DNA of 64,000 nt from assembly GCA_045659245.1 (NCBI GenBank), contig JAZOWN010000006.1:13186-77185 (forward strand). Reading direction: 5' to 3'. This DNA comes from Eubacteriales bacterium (GTDB taxonomy: Bacteria; Bacillota; Clostridia; Oscillospirales; CAG-272). The position numbers and the translations under genes were made by a program. A model generated the notes under the pieces. It worked only from the letters and a program-made list of their open reading frames with translations, did not search any database and was not told where the DNA came from. Numbering within the stretch: the first letter of the stretch is position 1; every line of letters begins with the position of its first letter. Below are positions 1-59,302 of the stretch, piece after piece.

Positions 1-774
1 GTCAACCTCTGCCGAGGGCTCGGTGAACGGGAAGTGGTGAGGACGGAAGCGAAGTCTTGTTTCGTTGCCAAAGAGCGTTTTTGCAAACGTTTCAAGCATT
101 CCCTTGAGATCACCCATGGTGATGTCCTTGTCGACCACGAGTCCCTCTACCTGATGGAAAAGGGGAGAGTGGGTTGCGTCAACTGCATCGGAGCGATAAA
201 CTCTACCGGGAGAAATAATTCTTATCGGGGGCTTCTGCTTCTCCATTGTTCTTACCTGAACGGGGGAGGTCTGGGAGCGAAGAAGAATATTTTCTGTGAT
301 GTAGAAAGTGTCCTGCGTGTCGCGTGCAGGGTGATTTTCAGGAATGTTGAGCGCCTGGAAATTGTAGTAATCGTACTCAACCTCGGGTCCCTCTGCGATA
401 GAAAATCCCATTCCTATAAATATATCCTCGTTAGTTCTCTGAACCTGCGTAAGCGGGTGAAGCTTGCCGGGAGCGGCAACGCTTGAGGGCAGGGTAACGT
501 CTATCTTTTCAGTTGCGAGCTTGCGTTCAAGCTCAGCTGCCTTCTGTGCTTCTGCCTTTATTTTGAGTGCTGTCTCGATCTCAGCGCGAACCTCGTTTGC
601 GATCTGTCCCACAACAGGGCGCTCCTCAGCTGTAAGCGCACCCATTCCGCGAAGAACGGAGGTAAGCTCACCCTTTTTTCCTAAATATTGAATTCTGATT
701 TGTTCAAGGTCAGCGTTGTCCGCGCTTATTGCAGACAGTGCTTCCTCTTTGATTTTTTGAAGCTTTTCTTTCAT
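1..774 (-). CDS. pheS: phenylalanine--tRNA ligase alpha subunit; N-terminal 258 codons in window, gene runs off the left edge
   Basis: Minus-strand translation from the ATG at 772-774 reads [88 protein letters not shown]. These are PheS class-II aaRS blocks. The frame stays open to position 1. The + strand ORFs 34-486 and 464-691 are its antisense shadows. Confidence 0.92.
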
Positions 775-799: not shown

Positions 800-1100
800 T
801 AAGTATTTACAGTATAAAAATAACCCCGTCCTAAAAACATAGGACGGGGTAAAATACTCCGCGGTACCACCTAAATTTCAGCTTTTGCTGACACTCAGTC
901 AACGTATAACGGCGTCGCCCGTGCTCCGCTACCTTTAAATATTCACAGAGCCTGCTCCGAAGTGAAATGCCGACGTACGTTTAGCAACCGCTTTCAGCCA
1001 AGGCGGTATTCTCTGAGGCAAGTGACGTGCGCAAGCGAGCTTCATCAATGCATTTTTATATCACTCCGTATATTATATCACAAAAATTCCTTTTTTGCAA
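800..1100 (-). promoter_or_regulatory. T-box leader (candidate Phe specifier) with its promoter, upstream of pheS
   Basis: All on the minus strand. The promoter is TTGCAA (1095-1100), a 17-nt spacer, then TATAAT (1072-1077). Stem-I shows AGAGA and GGCUGAAAG elements. A UUC triplet followed by A lies at 966-964. The T-box core UAGGUGGUACCGCGGAG is the reverse complement of 857-878. The terminator is CCCCGUCCU/AGGACGGGG plus a U-run (814-850). Confidence 0.85.
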
Positions 1101-5436: not shown

Positions 5437-5463
5437 TATTCCATAAACGGAATTGGAGGGATT

Positions 5464-6249
5464 ATGAATTACATTGACCGCATAAAAAAGATAAAGAGCG
5501 AGAAGAAAATAACTAACGACAAGCTCTCAGAAATGACGGGTATACCGCTTGGAACTCTCAGTAAGATAATGGCAGGGATAAGTGACTCTCCAAAGCTCTC
5601 AAACATAGTTGCAATTGCCGATGCTCTCGGCTGTACGCTTGATTATATCGTCAGCGGAACTCCCGAGAATAATAATAATTTTACCTTGACTGCCTCGGAA
5701 ATGGATTTTATCGAGCTTTACAGAGGGCTTGATACGCACTCGCGCGAGGTCGTTAATATGGTGGCAAAAAAGGAGTCTGAGCGTGCCGCTGTCGCTGTGC
5801 CTGCTTCGGAGAAGCAGAGAACTCCCTCAAGAAGCGCGAAGATATTGCCGACGCTTAACTCCTCCAAGGGACTCGGAAAGCGCACCGTGCTTTTGTACGA
5901 TCTTGCAGTTTCTGCCGGAACGGGAGTGTATCTTGACGATACCGATACGACGGAGATATCTATTCCCGACAATGAGAAAACGAGAATTGCCGATTTTGCT
6001 CTCCGTATAAACGGAAACAGTATGGAGCCGAAGTATCACGACGGTGACATCGTGCTCGTTGAGGATACGGATTCCGTTGAGGTTGGCGAGCTTGGTATAT
6101 TCGTGCTTGACGGCAACGGATATTTCAAGATGTTCGGCGGAGACAGGCTTATTTCTCTTAACGAGGACTACGGCGACATTCTGCTTCACGGCTATTCGGA
6201 GGTCGTTTGCTGCGGCAGAGTAGTTGGAAGACTGAAAAAGAGAGTCTGA
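5464..6249 (+). CDS. XRE-family HTH repressor fused to an S24 (LexA/CI-like) self-cleaving peptidase domain
   Basis: The start was moved to the ATG at 5464, which follows a GGAGGG RBS; the track ORF 5278 start would overlap spoIIP. The N-terminus has an HTH (ITNDKLSEMTGIPLGTLSKIMAG). The C-terminus has an S24 signature (INGNSMEP..GDIVLVE..GYFKMF). Confidence 0.8.
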   Translation: MNYIDRIKKIKSEKKITNDKLSEMTGIPLGTLSKIMAGISDSPKLSNIVAIADALGCTLDYIVSGTPENNNNFTLTASEMDFIELYRGLDTHSREVVNMVAKKESERAAVAVPASEKQRTPSRSAKILPTLNSSKGLGKRTVLLYDLAVSAGTGVYLDDTDTTEISIPDNEKTRIADFALRINGNSMEPKYHDGDIVLVEDTDSVEVGELGIFVLDGNGYFKMFGGDRLISLNEDYGDILLHGYSEVVCCGRVVGRLKKRV

Positions 6250-6304
6250 CTTTGGGCTGATTACTTTAGCGCAGAACAAAAACGCACGAATATAAACTAA
6301 TATA

Positions 6305-6348
6305 AAAGCCGCTTTTGCTATCATAACTGATGGTAAGAGCGGTTTTTT
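6305..6348 (+). terminator. intrinsic terminator after the XRE/S24 gene
   Basis: The stem CCGCTTTT (6309-6316) / AAGAGCGG (6335-6342) has one G-U pair. It is followed by TTTTTT (6343-6348). Confidence 0.6.
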
Positions 6349-6448
6349 GTATAGCGAAAGCTCCGCCGTGGTTGCGGGGTTAAAAAGGTTAACTGATGAG
6401 CAAAAGCACGAAAAACAAATTTAACGTTAAAAGCCCTTGTAACAATAA

Positions 6449-6626
6449 GCCTTCCCCAGCGGTGGGAGATGGTCGCAAGCGACCGTCGAGTTTGCTACGC
6501 AAACATCGAGGGGACCGCGTTAGCGGTGGATGTGGTGTTGTATATTCAATTCATTCTTTAACACCTCATCCGTCATTGACTCGCACCATCGGCTCGTCAA
6601 TGCCACCTTCCCCCGCTGGGGAAGGC
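6449..6626 (+). ncRNA. candidate structured RNA or inverted-repeat element of unknown family
   Basis: A perfect 14-bp closing stem GCCTTCCCCAGCGG (6449-6462) / CCGCTGGGGAAGGC (6613-6626) can be extended by GGGAG/CUUCC with one G-U pair. It encloses several hairpins. These are GAUGGUC-GCAA-GACCGUC (GNRA loop), UUUGC-UAC-GCAAA, ACCGC-GUUA-GCGGU, GGAUGUGGUGUU..AACACCUCAUCC with an AU-rich apical loop, and CAUUGAC..GUCAAUG. The GNRA loop and the G-U pairs favour the + strand. Confidence 0.35.
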
Positions 6627-6709
6627 TCACGCTGACAGAGCTTTATGCTGATTATAAATTTTAATTTCGAGATGTCGCTGATATTTTTATGCCGTTTCGG
6701 GAAAAATAA

Positions 6710-6735
6710 TGAATATTATGCATGAATAATATTCT
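6710..6735 (+). promoter_or_regulatory. tandem ARG-box-like 13-mers upstream of the glycosyltransferase gene
   Basis: TGAATATTATGCA (6710-6722) directly abuts TGAATAATATTCT (6723-6735). The first 13-mer is identical to the reverse complement of 31446-31458 in the arg operon control region. Confidence 0.3.
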
Positions 6736-6747
6736 GCTTTTCGGACG

Positions 6748-7872
6748 GTGAAAATGAAGATAATTGAAATAATAAGCGACACGAATATCGGAGGCGCGGG
6801 TGTTTTGCTCTTGAATAGACTCAAATATACAGATATTCAAAAATACGATACGCTGGTGCTTATCCCAAAGCGCAGTATGCTCGCGCCGCGACTTGAAAAT
6901 TTAGGAGTGGGATACAGAGAAATATCGGGGAACGCCAACAAGTCTATGGACGTGCGGACGGTGCGGGAATACGTATCCGTTTTTAGGGAAATAAAGCCCG
7001 ATATAATCAACGCACACGGCTGTCTTTCAGCGCGGATAGCGGCGTGGCTTTGCGGTGTGCCCGTGAAGATCTGCACGCGGCACTGCGTATTTCCCGTAGG
7101 GAAAATATCATTTGCGCAAAAAAAGATAATGGGAGCGCTCAATTCGCTGCTCTCTGATAAATTTATCGCGGTAGCGCATGCGGCAAAGCAAAATCTTATA
7201 GAGCTTGGAGTTTACGAGGAGAAGATAGAGGTCGTTATCAACGGTGCTGTCTCTTTGAGAAAGGCTTCCGACTCGGAGAGAGCGCAAACAAGAAAAAGGC
7301 TTGGTATTTCGGGAGAAAGCGCGGTGCTCGGAATGTGCGCGCGCCTTGAAAAATATAAGGGACACGAATGGTTTTTTGAGACTTTTCGTATACTGCTTGA
7401 TAACGGAAGCGATGTAAATGCCATTCTGATCGGCGACGGCACGCAAAGGGAATACCCCGAGGGGCTTTGCAAGCAGTATGGAATTGAGGAAAGAGTGCAC
7501 TTTATAGGATTTGTGTCGGACGTGTCTCCGTATATGAATATCGTCGATATTAACGTAAACTGTTCTGTGGGCACGGAGACGTCCTCGCTTGCGCTTTCCG
7601 AGGGAATGAGCCTCGGTATTCCCGCCGTTGTGAGCGACTTCGGCGGAAATCCTTATATGATAGCGCACGGAGAGAACGGGCTTGTGTGTGAGTGCTACGA
7701 CAGCCGAAAAATGGCGGATTATATCTGTGACTTAATAAATGATAGTGAGCTCTACCAACGCATGAGCCTTGCGGCGCGCGAGCGCTTTGCGGACGAGCTT
7801 AACGCACGCGCTATGACCGAAAAAACAAATAAGCTCTACGATAGGCTTTATAACGCCTATTGCAGAGCTTAA
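6748..7872 (+). CDS. glycosyltransferase, GT-B fold, family 4 (GT4/GT1-type)
   Basis: The N-terminus has the glycine-rich GT4 motif (DTNIGGAGV). The C-terminus has an E-x7-E-like block (TETSSLALSEGMSLGIPAVVSDFGGNPYMIAHGENG). The start is either GTG 6748 or ATG 6754. Confidence 0.8.
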   Translation: MKMKIIEIISDTNIGGAGVLLLNRLKYTDIQKYDTLVLIPKRSMLAPRLENLGVGYREISGNANKSMDVRTVREYVSVFREIKPDIINAHGCLSARIAAWLCGVPVKICTRHCVFPVGKISFAQKKIMGALNSLLSDKFIAVAHAAKQNLIELGVYEEKIEVVINGAVSLRKASDSERAQTRKRLGISGESAVLGMCARLEKYKGHEWFFETFRILLDNGSDVNAILIGDGTQREYPEGLCKQYGIEERVHFIGFVSDVSPYMNIVDINVNCSVGTETSSLALSEGMSLGIPAVVSDFGGNPYMIAHGENGLVCECYDSRKMADYICDLINDSELYQRMSLAARERFADELNARAMTEKTNKLYDRLYNAYCRA

Positions 7873-12268: not shown

Positions 12269-13882
12269 ATGTCTGAAGAAAAAAGTAAAAAGCAGCAGTT
12301 AGACGACTTTTGGGATATTTCGTCGCTTGTTCCCCAAAAGAGGAGCTTTGCTCCCTCGTCAAAATCCGTAGACACGGTTCTCATTACTGACGGCGAGAAA
12401 AAAAGAGAGAGCGGAGAGGTAAAAATCACCGAGAGCAGCACCGTTATCGAGAGATTTATTCCGCCCCACACGCCCGACGAGCTTCGTCCGCAGCTTGCGC
12501 CGTACGACGAATACGTTCCCGAAAGCCCCCTTATTCATAAGGTTTCACTGTATAGGGAGCCGTCTTCGTATAATTTCTATGAGGATTTCTGTCGCACCGC
12601 AAAGCGGCTTTGGAACGAGTCCGCGACGGAGTGCGAATACGTTGATTTCTTCTCATACTCGCCGCAGTATAACCAGCTCGCCGCCGACCAGCTCTCATAT
12701 TACCTTTGGTGGAGAGAAAACGTAAGGCGCGGTGTATACCTTAAAACCAATATCTGCTACATCAATCTTTATACGTTCGAGCTTATAAACACGCGAGAAG
12801 TAATTGAACTCATTGAAGCAAGAGAAATGATGATAAGGGTGCTTGAAGCCTACCGCTCGGTGCTTCTCGGTACGATACCGAAGTATATACGCTGGATCTC
12901 TGATTTCAGCCTTGTGCATCACCTGCCGCCACCTAAAAAGTTCGACGCGAAGCTTTTGGAGAAGGCGAGCGCCTTGAAGGAATATTTTATGTGTGTTGCG
13001 GGGAACACCGCCGAGGGCTGGGCGCATATGCTTTTGACATACTGCACCTCGTACGACTACCGCATGAGTAAATTCGCGACGGAGGAAAACATCGCGCTCT
13101 TTGAGGAGCACGTGCCGAAGGCTATTGCAAGGGTAGTTGAAAAGCTGTCAGAGAACGGGAAGATACTTTCCGCGCTGCCGTTTAACGACTGCAAAATAAG
13201 CGCAAAAGCGTTTGACGGAGCTGTCTGCTCGTCGGAAAACAGGGTTATAATTGACGTTGAATATTGCTCGTTTTCGCGCTCGCACGAATTACGCTTTCTC
13301 ATTGGAGATGCGGTAAAGCAAGCGGAAAACAAGATAAGAGCGCACATTTCGGTAAAGTCAAGGCTTACCGTGTATTCCTTGCCGCTCGAACTTTGTCAGG
13401 TGATAAACGAGTATTTCGACAGAGCGTTGCCCGTAGTCAGAAAGTCGAGAGCAAAGGCGGAAGCACCGACGGAATACGATGTGCTTTACGACGTTCCGAG
13501 AACCAAGCTCAGTATTTCCAACGCTCAAAAAATAGAATCGGAGTCTTGGGATACCACCAAGGAGCTGGTGGGAGATTTTGAAGAAAGTCCGATAGAGGAA
13601 AAACCTCGGATTATGGAAATCGAGTCGGTAATAAAAGAGAGCGGGGAAGCTGACGAGCCGTCGCTTTTGTCGGCGCTTGGCGAGTACGCAGATGCGGTCA
13701 TATCACTTGCAAAAGGGGAGAGCATAGCGCTTTTTGCTCTTTCAAAATCTCTTGGCAGACCTACGGAGGCTGTCGTTGACGTGATAAACGAGATAGCAGC
13801 CTGCGCTATCGGGGATATACTCATTGAGGAAAACGACGGTCAGTATTCGGTAATAGAAGACTATCTTGAACTTATAAATTAA
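12269..13882 (+). CDS. TerB-N/TerB-C domain protein (Shango SngA-like)
   Basis: The ATG at 12269 follows an AAAGGGGA RBS. The TerB-N signature reads YVDFFSYSPQYNQLAADQLSYYLWWRENVRRG. The acidic C-terminal TerB-C-like module reads LLSALGEYADAVISLAKG..VVDVINEIAACAIGDILIEE. Its stop overlaps the next ATG (TAATG at 13880-13884). Confidence 0.8.
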   Translation: MSEEKSKKQQLDDFWDISSLVPQKRSFAPSSKSVDTVLITDGEKKRESGEVKITESSTVIERFIPPHTPDELRPQLAPYDEYVPESPLIHKVSLYREPSSYNFYEDFCRTAKRLWNESATECEYVDFFSYSPQYNQLAADQLSYYLWWRENVRRGVYLKTNICYINLYTFELINTREVIELIEAREMMIRVLEAYRSVLLGTIPKYIRWISDFSLVHHLPPPKKFDAKLLEKASALKEYFMCVAGNTAEGWAHMLLTYCTSYDYRMSKFATEENIALFEEHVPKAIARVVEKLSENGKILSALPFNDCKISAKAFDGAVCSSENRVIIDVEYCSFSRSHELRFLIGDAVKQAENKIRAHISVKSRLTVYSLPLELCQVINEYFDRALPVVRKSRAKAEAPTEYDVLYDVPRTKLSISNAQKIESESWDTTKELVGDFEESPIEEKPRIMEIESVIKESGEADEPSLLSALGEYADAVISLAKGESIALFALSKSLGRPTEAVVDVINEIAACAIGDILIEENDGQYSVIEDYLELIN

Positions 13883-17541: not shown

Positions 17542-17830
17542 TTGACAAGTGACAAAGCTTGGAGTATTATATTAGCAATGGCTGTGATAAGGACAGGCGA
17601 GGATTTTGAAATTACAGAGAGCCGTTGGTTGGTGTGAAACGGTGTTTCGTTCCTTTTGCTAAATCACCTTTGAGCTCGCTGCCGAAAGCCCCACGGCAAG
17701 TAGAACAGCGCGTATTCCTGCGTTAGAGGAGAGTGTATGATAAGTACACGGTGAGTGGTCGTTTGACAAAAAGAGTGGTACCGCGGAAGCTTTACGCCTT
17801 CGCCTCTTAAGATAGGGGCGAAGGCTTTTT
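17542..17830 (+). promoter_or_regulatory. promoter plus T-box leader (candidate Ile specifier AUC) controlling ilvA-ridA
   Basis: The promoter is TTGACA (17542-17547), 17 nt, then TATTAT (17565-17570). Stem-I reads AGAGAGCCGUUGGUUGGUGUGAAACGG. AUC followed by A lies at 17663-17666. The T-box core AAGAGUGGUACCGCGG is at 17771-17786. The terminator is GCCUUCGCCUCU / AGGGGCGAAGGC plus UUUUU (17796-17830). Confidence 0.85.
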
Positions 17831-19552: not shown

Positions 19553-19880
19553 TTGACAAAATGCGGTTTTTGTGGTAAAATATCCGCAACAAGTTTTTAT
19601 TATAATGTAGGGCTTTGAAGGGAAGCAGTAGTTTGCGATGCATTTTCAGAAAGTCGGCGGGTGATGCGAGCCGATAATGCGAGCTTATGAATCTCATCCC
19701 CGAGCTTCCGCTTGAAGGCAAGGTCTTGTTGCTGCGTAGGTGCGGACGGTGTGTTCCCGTTATCATGAACAACCTCACTAATTGGCGAGGGAAAGTGGCA
19801 TTTATTGCAATAAGAGTGGTACCGCAGAGAGTTTATTAGACCTTTGTCTCTTGAAATTTGAGAGATAAAGGTCTTTTTTG
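19553..19880 (+). promoter_or_regulatory. promoter plus T-box leader (candidate Leu specifier CUC) controlling the ilv-leu operon
   Basis: The promoter is TTGACA (19553-19558), 17 nt, then TAAAAT (19576-19581). Stem-I has AGAAAG..GGGUGAUGCGAG. CUC followed by A lies at 19693-19696, and an overlapping AUC at 19691-19693 makes the specifier ambiguous. The T-box core AAGAGUGGUACCGCAG is at 19812-19827. A 14-bp terminator AGACCUUUGUCUCU / AGAGAUAAAGGUCU plus a U-run spans 19838-19879. Confidence 0.85.
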
Positions 19881-19916: not shown

Positions 19917-21575
19917 ATGATTTTAAACGGTTCTGAAATTCTTGTAAACGTTTTGCTTGAACAGGGCGTGGATACCGTGTTCGGTTATCCGGGCGGCTCT
20001 GTTTTGAATATTTACGACGCGCTTTATAAGAATAGCGACAAAATTTGTCACGTGCTGACTGCTCACGAGCAGGGCGCGGCACATGCGGCTGACGGATACG
20101 CAAGATCAACGGGCAAGACGGGCGTCGTTATCGCTACGAGCGGCCCCGGCGCTACCAATCTGGTAACGGGTATCGCTACGGCTTATATGGACAGTGTTCC
20201 CATGGTTGCCATAACGGGTAACGTGCCCACGCCTCTTATAGGCTGTGACAGCTTCCAGGAGGTCTACATAGCGGGAATTACGATGCCCATTACCAAGCAC
20301 AACTTCGTGGTAAGACGAGTTGAGGATCTGGCGGACACCTTGCGCGCGGCTTTCAAGATAGCGGCAAGCGGCAGACCCGGACCTGTGCTCGTGGATATTC
20401 CCAAGGACGTTACGGCTAACAAGACGACCTACACGCCTCAGGTGCCCGAGAAAATAACGGCAGACACGGCAATTGACGGAAACATAGCGGAGATCGCTGA
20501 CCTGATAAATAAGGCAGAGCGTCCGTTTATCTACTTTGGCGGCGGAGTCCGCATTTCGGGTGCATCAGACGAATTGCGCGAGCTGATAATGAAGGCAGAC
20601 ATTCCTGCGGCGTATTCGCTTATGGCGGCTGGCGTGCTCGGACACGGAGAGAAGAACAACCTCGGTCTTATAGGAATGCACGGCTTCTATTCCGCAAACT
20701 GCGCGGCTAACCGAGCTGACCTCATGATCGCGATAGGAACTCGCTTTAGTGACAGAGTTGCTCTTAACACACAGAAGTTCGGACATAACGCAAAGATAGT
20801 CCATATCGATATCGACCCCGGTGAGATAGGCAAGAACGTTCCCGTAGATTACAGCATCATAGGTGATGTAAAGGTAGTTCTTACGGAGCTTCTTAAGCAG
20901 GTCAAGACCACGACTCACCCCGAATGGTCGGAGCAGATAGGAAAATGGCGTCTTGACGATTACACCCCCGAGGATTCCGATACGGAGCTCAAGCCTCACC
21001 AGATAATAAGAGCGACATGCGAGATGGCGGGTGAGGAGGCTATCTACGTTACCGACGTAGGTCAGCACCAGATGTGGGCGGCTCAGTACACAAAGCACGT
21101 TCGCCCCATGAACTTCCTTACGAGCGGCGGACTTGGTACGATGGGCTACGGATACGGAGCGGCTATCGGAGCAAAGATGGCGCACCCCGAGCTTCCCGTT
21201 ATTCACTATACGAGTGACGGCTCTCTGCACATGAACCTTAACGAGCTTTGCACGGCAGTAAGCTATAAGCTTCCCGTGGTGACCGTTATACTTAACAACG
21301 CAGTGCTCGGAATGGTAAGACAATGGCAGGCGTCCTTCTACGACCGCAGATTTTCTCAAAGCCAGCCCGAGCGCGTAACGGATTACGTAAAGGTTGCCGA
21401 GGCGTTTGGCGCGAAGGGATACCGTTGCTTCAATATTGCCGAGTATGAAGCCGCATTGGCAGAGGCTCTTAAGGCAGACGGCCCCGTTTGGATCGAGTGC
21501 GTTATCGACCGTGAGGAAAAGGTTCTTCCTATGATCCCGAGCGGCGGAACGGTAAACGATACGATTTCAAAGTAA
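19917..21575 (+). CDS. ilvB: acetolactate synthase large (catalytic) subunit
   Basis: 552-aa ThDP enzyme with GVDTVFGYPGG, ATSGPGATN and the ThDP motif GGLGTMGYG..NN. Confidence 0.93.
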   Translation: MILNGSEILVNVLLEQGVDTVFGYPGGSVLNIYDALYKNSDKICHVLTAHEQGAAHAADGYARSTGKTGVVIATSGPGATNLVTGIATAYMDSVPMVAITGNVPTPLIGCDSFQEVYIAGITMPITKHNFVVRRVEDLADTLRAAFKIAASGRPGPVLVDIPKDVTANKTTYTPQVPEKITADTAIDGNIAEIADLINKAERPFIYFGGGVRISGASDELRELIMKADIPAAYSLMAAGVLGHGEKNNLGLIGMHGFYSANCAANRADLMIAIGTRFSDRVALNTQKFGHNAKIVHIDIDPGEIGKNVPVDYSIIGDVKVVLTELLKQVKTTTHPEWSEQIGKWRLDDYTPEDSDTELKPHQIIRATCEMAGEEAIYVTDVGQHQMWAAQYTKHVRPMNFLTSGGLGTMGYGYGAAIGAKMAHPELPVIHYTSDGSLHMNLNELCTAVSYKLPVVTVILNNAVLGMVRQWQASFYDRRFSQSQPERVTDYVKVAEAFGAKGYRCFNIAEYEAALAEALKADGPVWIECVIDREEKVLPMIPSGGTVNDTISK

Positions 21576-31416: not shown

Positions 31417-31443
31417 AAGTTGGTTATAGACCTGTGAATTTTT

Positions 31444-31700
31444 AATGCATAATATTCATGCGCGTTTATGCATAATTCGCATAATACAATAAAAACGCCG
31501 TAAAATCAATGCATAAAGCATGAATAATATGCATAGTTGTGCATAATGACAATTTGAGAGCAAAAAAGTTGTGAAAATATCGTTGTTCGGTAGTATTGAC
31601 ATATTCTTCCGAATGGTGTATAATATACAACAGCATATAAAGTATTCATATTATTACTTTATAAATATATTTTGATTGTATTAAATTATGCTTTATGCAT
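31444..31700 (+). promoter_or_regulatory. arg operon control region: consensus promoter flanked by an array of ARG-box-like (ArgR/AhrC-type) repeats
   Basis: The promoter is TTGACA (31596-31601), 17 nt, then TGtATAAT (31619-31624). Repeats are TGCATAATATTCA (31446-31458), TGCATAATTCGCA (31469-31481), ATGCATAAAGCAT (31509-31521), TGAATAATATGCA (31521-31533) and TGCATAATG (31541-31549). An inverted copy of ATGCATAAAGCAT lies at 31688-31700, overlapping the argG RBS region. Confidence 0.6.
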
Positions 31701-44691: not shown

Positions 44692-44982
44692 TTGACAAAA
44701 AAATCGTTTTGGAGTATAATTTTCTCGTAAACCTATGATTAAGAATAGTAGTTAAAGTTATTGATTTTCAGAGAGCCAACGGTGGTGTGAGTTTTGGTAT
44801 TCAATCTTTAGTGAATGGACTTATGAGGGCGGCCGAAAGAGATTTTTTGAGTAGTAACCGACGGAACCGGATCCGTTACAGTTCGGAGTTGCTGAGTGGC
44901 AACGCACAGAGTGGGCGCACGTCGCCAATCACGGGTGGTACCGCAGGTTTTCCTGTCCCTGAACGTAGGGGCAGATTTTTTG
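44692..44982 (+). promoter_or_regulatory. promoter plus T-box leader with Trp specifier (UGG) controlling trpB
   Basis: The promoter is TTGACA (44692-44697), 17 nt, then TATAAT (44715-44720). Stem-I reads AGAGAGCCAACGGUGGUGUGAG. GAA-UGG-A places UGG at 44816-44818. The T-box core GGGUGGUACCGCAG is at 44933-44946. The terminator is CUGUCCCU/AGGGGCAG plus a U-run (44953-44981). Confidence 0.88.
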
Positions 44983-46366: not shown

Positions 46367-46580
46367 ATGCTATAATGTGAGCGTATGTCAGGGGTGTACG
46401 CAGTACTTAATAAGGAATTCGGTGAAAATCCGAAACGAGCGTGTCGCCGTATGCAAAAACAGGTGCGAAAGCAAGCTCGCCGCAGAGCTTGTTATCCATT
46501 GGACTTTTGTCTGAGAAGGTTTTTTGCGACCTTGCGCGAAAGCGCATTTTGCTAAGTCGGAAGACTTGCCCCGTAAGCTT
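46348..46580 (+). promoter_or_regulatory. promoter plus cobalamin (B12) riboswitch
   Basis: The promoter is TTGACT (46348-46353), 17 nt, then TGcTATAAT (46371-46376). The aptamer core reads AAUAAGGAAUUCGGUGAAAAUCCGAAACGAGCG..CGCC, followed by CCAUUGG..CUGAGAAGG. The B12-box-like AAGUCGGAAGACUUGCC lies at 46554-46570. Confidence 0.8.
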
Positions 46581-46656
46581 TTTACCGCACGGACCGGATC
46601 GATAAAAACGATGAAAGCTTGGTATGCGAGAAAAATAAAATTTTAGGAGAATTAAA

Positions 46657-47721: not shown

Positions 47722-47896
47722 TTGACTTTACGGTTACTATGTGGTATAATATATTCGTTAAGGGCTGTGTGCCTTTTTATGGCTTTTTGTGACCGACGGA
47801 TAAGTAGAAAAAACTACATGGGAGCAGGAAGTAATATAGCCGACCGTCTGGGCAGTCCTTTACCTTTGGGTAGGACTGCCCATATTTATTTTTTTG
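47722..47896 (+). promoter_or_regulatory. promoter plus ZTP (pfl-motif) riboswitch with terminator expression platform, upstream of the pur operon
   Basis: The promoter is TTGACT (47722-47727), 17 nt, then TGgTATAAT (47745-47750). The 5' subdomain is UGUGACCGACGGAUAAGUAG..CUACAUGGGAGC. After a linker, the 3' subdomain is CCGACCGUCUGGGCAG. The terminator GGGCAGUCCU (47850-47859) / AGGACUGCCC (47872-47881) plus a U-run overlaps the pseudoknot strand. Confidence 0.8.
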
Positions 47897-59021: not shown

Positions 59022-59186
59022 TTAATCACGCGTCAGCGTGTATGTAATCCGCAACTTGTTGCGGTATGGACTCGACACAAAGTGTCGTATGGAATCAAGA
59101 CCGAAGAAAAAATATTCGCGGATGAGCCGCAATTCCATGCAATTCGCAGAGCGAATTGATTCCATACTCAAGCCCTGCGGTCTTGA
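59022..59186. other. hairpin-dense structured intergenic element of unknown class
   Basis: There are four perfect short hairpins and one weaker 4-bp pairing. The four are CACGC-GTCA-GCGTG (59027-59040), CCGCAA-CTTG-TTGCGG (59049-59064), CGACAC-AAA-GTGTCG (59073-59087) and CAATTCGC-AGA-GCGAATTG (59140-59158). The weaker one is GCGG..CCGC (59118-59130). Long-range complements are also present: GTATGGAATC (59087-59096) / GATTCCATAC (59158-59167), and CAAGACCG (59096-59103) / CGGTCTTG (59178-59185). Confidence 0.4.
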
Positions 59187-59227: not shown

Positions 59228-59302
59228 GGTGACCCACCGGAGACTCGAACTCCGGACCCCTTGATTAAAAGTCAAGTGCTCTACCGTCTGAGCTAGTGGG
59301 TC
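59227..59302 (-). tRNA. tRNA-Lys (anticodon UUU), CCA-encoded
   Basis: The minus strand reads GACCCACTAGCTCAGACGGTAGAGCACTTGACTTTTAATCAAGGGGTCCGGAGTTCGAGTCTCCGGTGGGTCACCA. The cloverleaf is complete: a 7-bp acceptor stem, GCTC/GAGC D stem, CTTGA/TCAAG anticodon stem with loop CTTTTAA, and CGGAG/CTCCG T stem with TTCGAGT. Confidence 0.95.

Follow-up and report, generated by a model that had tools for sequence, protein, structure and literature searches.

This study concerns a 178-nt element at positions 6449-6626 of a 64,000-nt stretch of DNA from a Eubacteriales bacterium (contig JAZOWN010000006.1 of assembly GCA_045659245.1, positions 13,186 to 77,185), which as a whole is called the window here. 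Upstream of the element lies a repressor gene with HTH_3 and Peptidase_S24 domains (5461-6249, + strand), followed by a terminator-like hairpin with a T-run (AAAAGCCGCTTTTGC...GAGCGGTTTTTT, 6304-6348, +); downstream lie the conserved upstream region of a GT4 glycosyltransferase gene (6680-6753, +) and the start of that gene itself (6754, +). The element was initially noticed in the letters of the window as a candidate novel structured RNA or, as a fallback, a miniature inverted-repeat transposable element (MITE), situated between an orphan CI/LexA-like repressor and a glycosyltransferase gene. The repressor gene is not an orphan without a terminator, since it has its own hairpin and T-run. We report that the element is a convergent inverted pair of ~60-nt two-hairpin repeat units, not a unitary RNA, and that this repeat family occurs in many unrelated contexts among rumen and gut Bacillota and their phages.

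Results

The ends of the element, GCCTTCCCCAGCGG (6449-6462) and CCGCTGGGGAAGGC (6613-6626), are the perfect 14-nt complements that had been predicted, and the 25-nt arms 6448-6472 and 6603-6627 are 88% complementary; the further extension of the end helix by GGGAG/CTTCC with one G-U pair is also present, past a 1-nt bulge. Several local hairpins had been proposed inside the element, and five were located (6468-6487, 6490-6504, 6514-6527, 6573-6604 and 6606-6625). An apical stem (6528-6539/6560-6571) carries the expected 20-nt AT-rich loop, with 11 of its 12 positions paired (92%) rather than the full 12 bp first given. The minimum free energy (MFE) of the + strand is -95.4 kcal/mol whereas dinucleotide shuffles average -56.5 +/- 4.2 (z = -9.35; none of the 200 reaches it), that of the - strand is -93.7 kcal/mol (z = -10.0), and in a sliding scan of the 64 kb the element was the top GC-corrected outlier among all 180-nt segments (-5.8 sd). 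The 178-nt composite is present in a single copy within the window.

We note that both strands fold equally well, and a strand cannot be assigned from the pairing. A GCAA (GNRA) tetraloop and the G-U pairs had been taken as consistent with the + strand only, but the - strand folds as well as the + strand and the MFE structure of each strand holds one G-U among its 63-64 pairs. The putative GNRA hairpin is a perfect palindrome, GGTCGC-AA-GCGACC, whose sole possible closure is GGTCG-CAAG-CGACC, a CAAG loop, and the GCAA reading is out of register. No T-run follows the last stem, the sequence 3' of the element being TCACGCTGACAG, and the scan found no terminator-like site (GC-rich hairpin with T-run) at the element's end, as had been stated when a terminator was discounted, and no promoter-like site upstream of it on the + strand. 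The overlapping 79-aa open reading frame (ORF), already judged not to be protein-like, has no Pfam match.

The element divides into two repeat units for which we use two models, R1 for A-type and R2 for B-type units. An A-type unit reads GCCTTCCCC-AGCG-GGGGAAGG-TGGCA-hairpin-TGACGGATGAGGTGT, and a B-type unit ...GGGGAAGG-GGG-ACCGC-GCCA-GCGGT-GGATGAGGTGT; the outer hairpin of a unit is called P1 and the inner one P2. With filters off, R1 matched 6556-6633 on the - strand over its full model length (49.7 bits, E 1.8e-12), the only match at E < 0.05 in the 64 kb, and R2 matched 6492-6542 on the + strand (39.8 bits, E 6e-11). The right, A-type unit (6556-6633, -) thus reads on its own strand GCCTTCCCC-AGCG-GGGGAAGG-TGGCA, an enlarged P2 hairpin TTGAC..GTCAA, and TGACGGATGAGGTGTT; as + strand its tail is AACACCTCATCC, which is anti-Shine-Dalgarno-like.

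The left, B-type unit (6449-6539, +), delimited by R2 and by comparison with canonical units, begins with the P1 5' arm and loop GCCTTCCCC-AGCG (6449-6462), continues with a degenerate P1 3' arm GTGGGAG (6462-6468), a 42-nt insertion (6469-6510) and the linker and P2 GGG-ACCGC-GTTA-GCGGT (6511-6527), and ends in the Shine-Dalgarno (SD)-like tail GGATGTGGTGTT (6528-6539). Canonical B units read ...GGGGAAGGGGGACCGCGTTAGCGGTGGATGAGGTGT, and as compared to these the left unit has a decayed P1 3' arm, the insertion, and one A-to-T change in the tail. The insertion consists of two perfect hairpins, GATGGTCGC/GCGACCGTC and GTTTGC-TAC-GCAAAC, and a (G/C)(G/A)TCGAG linker comes after each of them; the insertion is missing in 17 of the 17 aligned canonical B-type units and is skipped by the R2 alignment. 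A 20-nt AT-rich spacer (6540-6559), the loop of the apical stem, follows the left unit.

The two units have the same ends. P1 and loop of one therefore pair with P1 and loop of the other to give the 14-bp closing stem, the two tails pair to give the apical stem, and the remainder of the 178-nt fold is supplied by the units' own hairpins. The whole composite of B unit, spacer and A unit (6449-6626) is marked by its complementary arms and its fold z on both strands. The candidate of one unitary structured RNA is not supported in that form, since the element splits into inverted R1 and R2 matches: the predicted structure is real and no known family matches it, but the two inverted repeat copies and the absence of the whole from a same-species relative (see below) speak against a single ~178-nt RNA.

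Both unit types were first read in L014, a contig matched twice by the 3' end hairpin in a scan of viral contigs and phage-like in that a tail-protein domain is present. No match came from an initial viral scan that used the 5' arm together with GTGGGAG, the decayed arm. The pattern GAAGGTGGCAN{5,35}GACGGATGAGG matched 88 viral stretches, where by our estimate < 1 is expected by chance, and R1 gave 200 matches at E <= 1e-3 in 0.82 Mb of collected viral loci, with up to 13, among the matches listed, in one 14-kb contig (L045). Units are found solitary, in adjacent same-strand runs with a period of ~65 nt, in convergent pairs and in divergent pairs, and their recurrent neighbours in viral loci are TerL, portal, prohead protease and GH25 lysin. 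A 25-mer of the B unit, ACCGCGTTAGCGGTGGATGWGGTGT, has exact matches in 28 metagenome contigs from rumen and human gut, with unrelated flanks. Dispersed copies, which the original prediction had proposed to look for, are therefore many at the family level. The family also reaches beyond the Clostridia to a cultured Negativicute: the Selenomonas ruminantium plasmid pSRC1 (NC_017078.1; our locus L167) has one unannotated B unit (19998-20056), which lies in sense orientation between iorB and a phenylacetate-CoA ligase gene, in a gap of 100 nt. In blastn searches the 178-nt element found nothing among phage and plasmid records, and a canonical composite found 0 phage records and one partial match among plasmid records.

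Some loci add observations on arrangement. At 10370-10561 of L045 three adjacent same-strand units have near-identical P1 and linkers and a P2 that differs in each copy yet is perfectly paired, and a second run is found at 12737-12980, upstream of a portal gene that is encoded on the other strand; this layout can be likened to repeat-spacer arrays, with palindromic "spacers". Other hairpin modules co-occur with units, in ~113-nt repeated blocks, in L029, L034 and L099 (e.g., L029 8100-8500) and at 13250-13340 of L014.

Convergent pairs such as that of the window are common. In 14 of 26 distinct metagenome contexts of B units, the reverse-complement tail CACCTC(A/T)T.. follows within 140 nt downstream, and among 28 metagenome loci 12 convergent pairs were confirmed with R1, with spacers of 8-55 nt and 129-180 nt between match ends. 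The B-A architecture of the window is a standard form of the family, and the spacers of other composites often have a hairpin of their own. The end hairpins within one composite can differ (CCTTCTCC/GGAGAAGG vs CCTTCCCC/GGGGAAGG, that is, CTCC/GGAG vs CCCC/GGGG), and their loops are usually not complementary. Because the composite ends vary independently, the conserved features are the local hairpins, with no conserved long-range helix; the window's perfect 14-bp end-to-end stem is a special case in which both copies of P1 and loop are identical. In two composites (L155 and L141) the last hairpin is followed by T6-T8, a T-run that the window copy does not have.

Compensatory change was sought in an alignment of 126 distinct units. 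Of its cells, 98% are paired as compared to ~50% in slid registers. At the three inner P2 pairs both sides are changed in 49-63 of about 120 sequences and at the next pair in 31, values that 0 of 500 shuffles reach; the units were not deduplicated by lineage and these cell counts overstate independent events. Within units P2 thus covaries freely. In the variable P2 stem G-U is nearly absent (7 cells, all at one pair), which fits a constraint on both strands or on the DNA and is of no help in choosing a strand. There is little or no variation in P1 and in the linkers GGTGGCA and TGACGGATGAGGT; the alignment was chosen by a pattern that holds most of these P1 and linker bases, and R1 matches found without the pattern keep them too.

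The tail of the B unit carries GAGGUG, to which the anti-Shine-Dalgarno sequence of 16S rRNA, CACCUC, is exactly complementary. In four independent contexts (L157, L147, L150 and L146) a start codon stands 2-5 nt after the ...GAGGTGT of a solitary B unit, and the ORFs so started encode an RsmI-like TP_methylase, a SAM methyltransferase, a DUF559 protein and a GT2 glycosyltransferase. Since GAGGUG complements the 16S 3' end and a start codon lies 2-5 nt on, the tail acts as a Shine-Dalgarno sequence there, and from its position we read it as the ribosome-binding site (RBS) of real genes in these four contexts outside the window. For A units, an RBS and start (ORF of at least 60 aa) within 60 nt downstream was found antisense in 42 of 138 cases vs sense in 14 of 138, a bias in line with the + strand serving as the mRNA (coding-sense) strand of B-A composites. 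These gene-orientation counts use simple ORF and RBS rules on G+C-rich contigs, and an ORF-only version for B units was too noisy and miscalled the left neighbour in the window. In the window itself the strand of the B unit (+) is co-directional with both neighbouring genes.

Relatives of the locus were gathered through a search with the glycosyltransferase protein. One of them, L006, is of the same species (nucleotide identity 97.0% in the lexA-like repressor gene and 96.1% in mgtE), and in two more distant ones, L007 and L008, the gene order is kept at 81-91% identity. In all three the same two genes are only ~100-110 nt apart, and the gap consists of a terminator, ATATCCCTCGCAnATTGCGAGGGATATTTTT (~45 nt in place of the window's ~430), leading directly into the conserved upstream region with GAATATTATGCATGAATAATATTC. 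The window keeps this conserved upstream region from 6680 on, including the palindrome GAATATTATGCATGAATAATATTC at 6711-6734 (+), while 6250-6679 is unrelated and holds the new terminator and the composite; intergenic comparison with these three relatives defines it as a lineage-specific block of ~430 nt. The region 6680-6753, which lies outside the composite and marks its right boundary, is conserved in L001, L002, L006, L009, L010, L011 and L012, and the sequence to the left of it is not. Because L006, with flanks 96-97% identical, has none of the ~430-nt block, the composite is a recent strain-level acquisition, neither a conserved leader nor a gene.

The glycosyltransferase gene with its upstream region (6680-7872) is only 87.4% identical to that of L006, vs 96-97% in the flanking repressor gene and mgtE, a contrast suggesting that recombination has replaced the allele of this surface-polysaccharide gene; given the identity of just 87%, the 430-nt block may have come with an imported allele. 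The intergenic spot is a hot spot. At the orthologous spot L002 and L009 have an extra gene, and L001, an Oscillospiraceae metagenome-assembled genome (MAG), has a Gut-1 RNA (RF01706) at 60-144 (-), scoring 55.5 bits where the gathering score is 50. The Gut-1 copy runs antisense to the glycosyltransferase gene and seems to sit in the ancestral terminator at its loop, the 3' half of that terminator (ATTGCGAGGGATATTTTT) being intact. This copy assigns Gut-1 to a named lineage and suggests that Gut-1, too, behaves as an insertion. The GAATATTATGCATGAATAATATTC-type palindrome is probably the operator of one regulator, and akin motifs (ATGCATAAT/ATGAATAATAT) are seen at 31515-31530 in another intergenic, AT-rich region (31440-31550). 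Exact-protein look-ups with the glycosyltransferase (with two starts), the repressor, the 79-aa ORF and the protein P0001 found none on record.

Searches against Rfam 15, whose families include raiA, 6S, SRP, RNase P, tmRNA, riboswitches, and hammerhead and other ribozymes, gave no relative of the element. At gathering threshold the whole window has only T-box (four times), tRNA, cobalamin and ZTP matches, all away from the element; at E <= 10 the segment 6230-6760 gives noise only; and five contigs with canonical copies (55 kb, 30 R1 matches) give nothing at E <= 0.1. The claim that no known RNA family is present has therefore held at each of these levels. The literature on REP/REPIN repeats in Clostridia, on the unit strings, and on interspersed repeats or MITEs in Clostridiales and Ruminococcaceae does not describe the family, and on the basis of Rfam 15 and this literature it is apparently undescribed. 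Hammerhead_II scored 14.5 bits (E 4.4) at 6352-6409 (+), CGAAAGC ... CUGAUGAGC, between the terminator and the element, a match that is not significant and has essentially no stem II. Considered together with the CUGAUGAGG tails of some members of the family, it was not taken for a hammerhead, because the order of core elements and the A15.1-U16.1 pair misfit and no hammerhead model scores.

Other structured elements of the window lie apart from the composite. Riboregulators at Rfam gathering scores are four T-box leaders, a cobalamin riboswitch and a ZTP riboswitch, at 837-1057(-), 17575-17810, 19606-19854, 44726-44963, 46375-46587 and 47779-47860, ordinary features that confirm the context of a Firmicute chromosome. 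A second hairpin-packed intergenic element (59027-59185) stands beside a tRNA gene (59230-59302, -) and has five or six small perfect hairpins, with a linker (G)TATGGAAT and its complement repeated in direct and inverted orientation (fold z -3.7 on the + strand and -3.4 on the - strand); its architecture is Gut-1-like. It has no Rfam match at E <= 10, and blastn-short found no similarity among it, the main element and the L001 element.

Discussion

We consider that the 178-nt element is probably a composite of a dispersed modular hairpin repeat, of the kind represented by REPINs, BIMEs (bacterial interspersed mosaic elements) and BOX elements, and not a dedicated RNA gene. Here the B unit on the + strand, with P1 CCTTCCCC/GGGGAAGG, GGG, P2 ACCGC/GCGGT and the tail GGATGAGGTGT, faces an A unit on the - strand with P1, TGGCA, a variable P2 and TGACGGATGAGGT. 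Such units would spread as DNA by transposition of the REPIN/BOX type or by recombination, the latter being plausible at this locus because the neighbouring glycosyltransferase allele, more divergent than its surroundings, seems to have been imported. In intergenic RNA they would be tolerated and sometimes used, persisting as harmless or useful sequences, and within a composite the anti-SD-like ACACCUCAUCC of the inverted partner would mask the SD-like tail. Since the tail is masked, no T-run follows, no promoter precedes and the site lies between a terminator and the upstream region of the next gene, the local effect at 6449-6626 is most likely small, that of a very stable structure in RNA or DNA which would be at most a barrier to read-through or to exonucleases.

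The comparison with known repeats is instructive. Repetitive extragenic palindromic (REP) sequences can form inverted doublets, REPINs, that fold into one long hairpin (PMC3116915, PMC3337134). Like the REP, REPIN and BIME elements of Proteobacteria, the units described here are short extragenic palindromes, found singly, clustered or in inverted pairs at intercistronic or 3' sites and varying among strains; the window's B(+)/A(-) pair over a 20-nt spacer is an inverted doublet. Viral and metagenome contigs hold many copies each, as compared to one composite in the 64-kb window. They differ in that they begin with (A)AGCCTTCCCC, i.e., (A)AGCC, and not with the GT(A/G)G foot of REP sequences, in having two hairpins and invariant SD-like linkers conserved across classes of Bacillota and their phages, where REP families are species-specific, and in their abundance inside phage genomes. 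No REP-associated tyrosine transposase (RAYT/Y1) was found among the clustered ORFs of the viral loci. A co-occurring module, GTAGGGGCG...CGCCC, does carry GTAG; in the module GTAGGGGCGATTCACGAATCGCCC of the ~113-nt blocks, GTAG followed by a palindrome makes up the REP signature.

BOX elements (boxA-boxB(n)-boxC) are modular hairpin repeats with a variable number of modules that are transcribed with their neighbours, and both BOX and RUP occur in a Firmicute; we know of no dedicated transposase for BOX. With BOX, RUP, ERIC and Correia elements the present family shares the nature of a modular, hairpin-forming interspersed repeat. Pneumococcal BOX elements are reported to be able to alter the expression of neighbouring genes (PMC3049150). 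BOX has another set of modules and no sequence relationship to the units (a judgement made without comparing models), which have a hypervariable Watson-Crick stem and a tail that can stand as a ribosome-binding site. For the SD-like tail, a functional analogy is presumably offered by the STAB-SD of cry3A, which we take to be a 5' mRNA stabiliser in a Firmicute. There, as with solitary B units, a strong SD-like sequence stands beside stable hairpins in a 5' untranslated region; STAB-SD differs in belonging to a single locus and in not being dispersed, whereas the tail in the window is paired with an anti-SD-like partner and is followed by no start codon.

The Gut-1 motif is known only from human-gut metagenomes and its function is unknown (Weinberg et al. 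2010, PMC2864571). It resembles the element in habitat and lineage, in its small variable covarying hairpins with a purine-rich linker (GUGAAAU, as compared to GGAUGAGGU here), and in sharing an insertion site with it, as the orthologous spot of L001 demonstrates. It differs in linker sequence and in having three hairpins, and its model is unmatched by the element: there is no Gut-1 match in 6230-6760 at E <= 10 and none window-wide at gathering threshold, with the 55.5-bit match in L001 as positive control. We therefore suggest classing the units as a new family among the interspersed hairpin repeats of bacteria.

Several observations weigh against this interpretation. The clusters of 3,624 ORFs from the 88 unit-bearing viral loci contain no recurrent transposase or mobilising gene (host genomes were not searched), and with one composite only in 64 kb a high copy number in the source genome is not shown. 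There is no target-site duplication, the flanks reading ...ACAATAA/GCC and GGC/TCACGCT at the element's edges. The bias of B-unit flanks is weak, with the downstream gene on the same strand in 20 cases vs the opposite strand in 11 (ORF-based). The 10-12-nt linkers are conserved across hosts in unit regions ranging from ~45% to 70% G+C. Because species-specific selfish repeats usually do not conserve linkers across hosts, this points to functional constraint, and a description of the composite as mostly inert here may underrate it.

In one alternative the whole B-spacer-A composite (130-190 nt) is a structured noncoding RNA family, a small RNA (sRNA) or a decoy for ribosomes or proteins, with a gene on the + strand here. 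The convergent architecture in about half of the B contexts and its narrow size range (129-180 nt), single-stranded linkers that are invariant across very different hosts, strong stem covariation, strand-biased placement, and the hairpin with T6-T8 that ends L155 and L141 like an sRNA terminator would all suit such a family. We nonetheless regard this as rather unlikely, given that units also occur solitary, adjacent on the same strand and divergent, that end hairpins vary independently within a composite, and that the variable stem is almost without G-U and both strands fold equally well. As an independent sRNA gene the window copy fares no better: it has neither a promoter-like site upstream on the + strand nor a T-run after it, and its same-species and sister relatives lack it at this locus.

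A classical MITE, moved by the transposase of an insertion sequence (IS) encoded elsewhere, with the internal hairpins incidental, might likewise account for the perfect terminal inverted repeats (TIRs) of 14-15 bp, the 178-bp length, the presence/absence polymorphism at the locus and the dispersed family. The MITE-like fallback came closer to the truth, and the many dispersed copies named with it are there at the family level. The classical MITE label is itself not established: the target-site duplication was not found, the polymorphic block is ~430 nt and not 178 nt, the TIR is the P1 hairpin, which solitary and tandem units without an inverted partner also possess, an IS sharing these ends was not seen, and the recurrent neighbours include no transposase; only one composite, moreover, lies in the window. 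We judge this explanation improbable. A direct repeat at 6250-6263/6641-6654 (12 of 14 positions) was tried as a target duplication and rejected, being by our estimate at about chance level and missing at the empty site of L006. Least probable, and largely refuted by the relatives, is a cis-regulatory leader (a riboswitch or attenuator) of the GT4 glycosyltransferase gene. The element does lie 128 nt upstream on the same strand and has alternative pairings, e.g., the local hairpin 6606-6625 vs the long stem, but orthologous glycosyltransferase genes (78-86% identity) keep the upstream region and palindrome without the element, which itself stands upstream of and outside this conserved region; no riboswitch or leader family matches it, and other members of the family precede unrelated genes. 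The composite of dispersed repeat units thus remains the interpretation we prefer.

What the units might do elsewhere invites speculation. It is conceivable, though we would put it well short of probable, that they are portable RNA modules with an SD mimic (GAGGUG, GGAAGG) beside stable hairpins; that the inverted copy is an anti-SD mimic (ACACCUCAUCC or ACACCUCUUUC) resembling the 16S 3' end; that phages and hosts employ solitary, tandem or paired units to control the start of translation and the stability of mRNA between genes; that the paired form, as in the window, is a masked state; and that the hypervariable stem, Watson-Crick only, is the trace of how the units are copied, for instance by fold-back or template-switch synthesis, these five proposals standing together. 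The order of elements in a unit, GGAAGG...GCGGU-GGAU, is presumably similar to that of helix 45 and the 3' tail in the 16S rRNA of Firmicutes.

Conclusions

For the window the finding is deflationary, in that the top fold of 64 kb is a recently acquired composite repeat and not an RNA gene or a regulator of the glycosyltransferase. In the genomes and MAGs of Clostridia such composites will yield false calls of "novel structured RNA" as well as spurious ORFs rich in Pro/Ser/Gly/Arg, and the R1 and R2 unit models allow them to be masked. To our knowledge no REP/RAYT-like system has been established in Firmicutes. The family, which abounds in phages and bacteria of rumen and gut, unites the unusual features of SD-like linkers kept across bacterial classes, a hypervariable Watson-Crick stem, tandem and inverted arrays, and use as a ribosome-binding site, and it is a tractable system for the study of how repeats spread in Firmicutes and are co-opted for gene expression.

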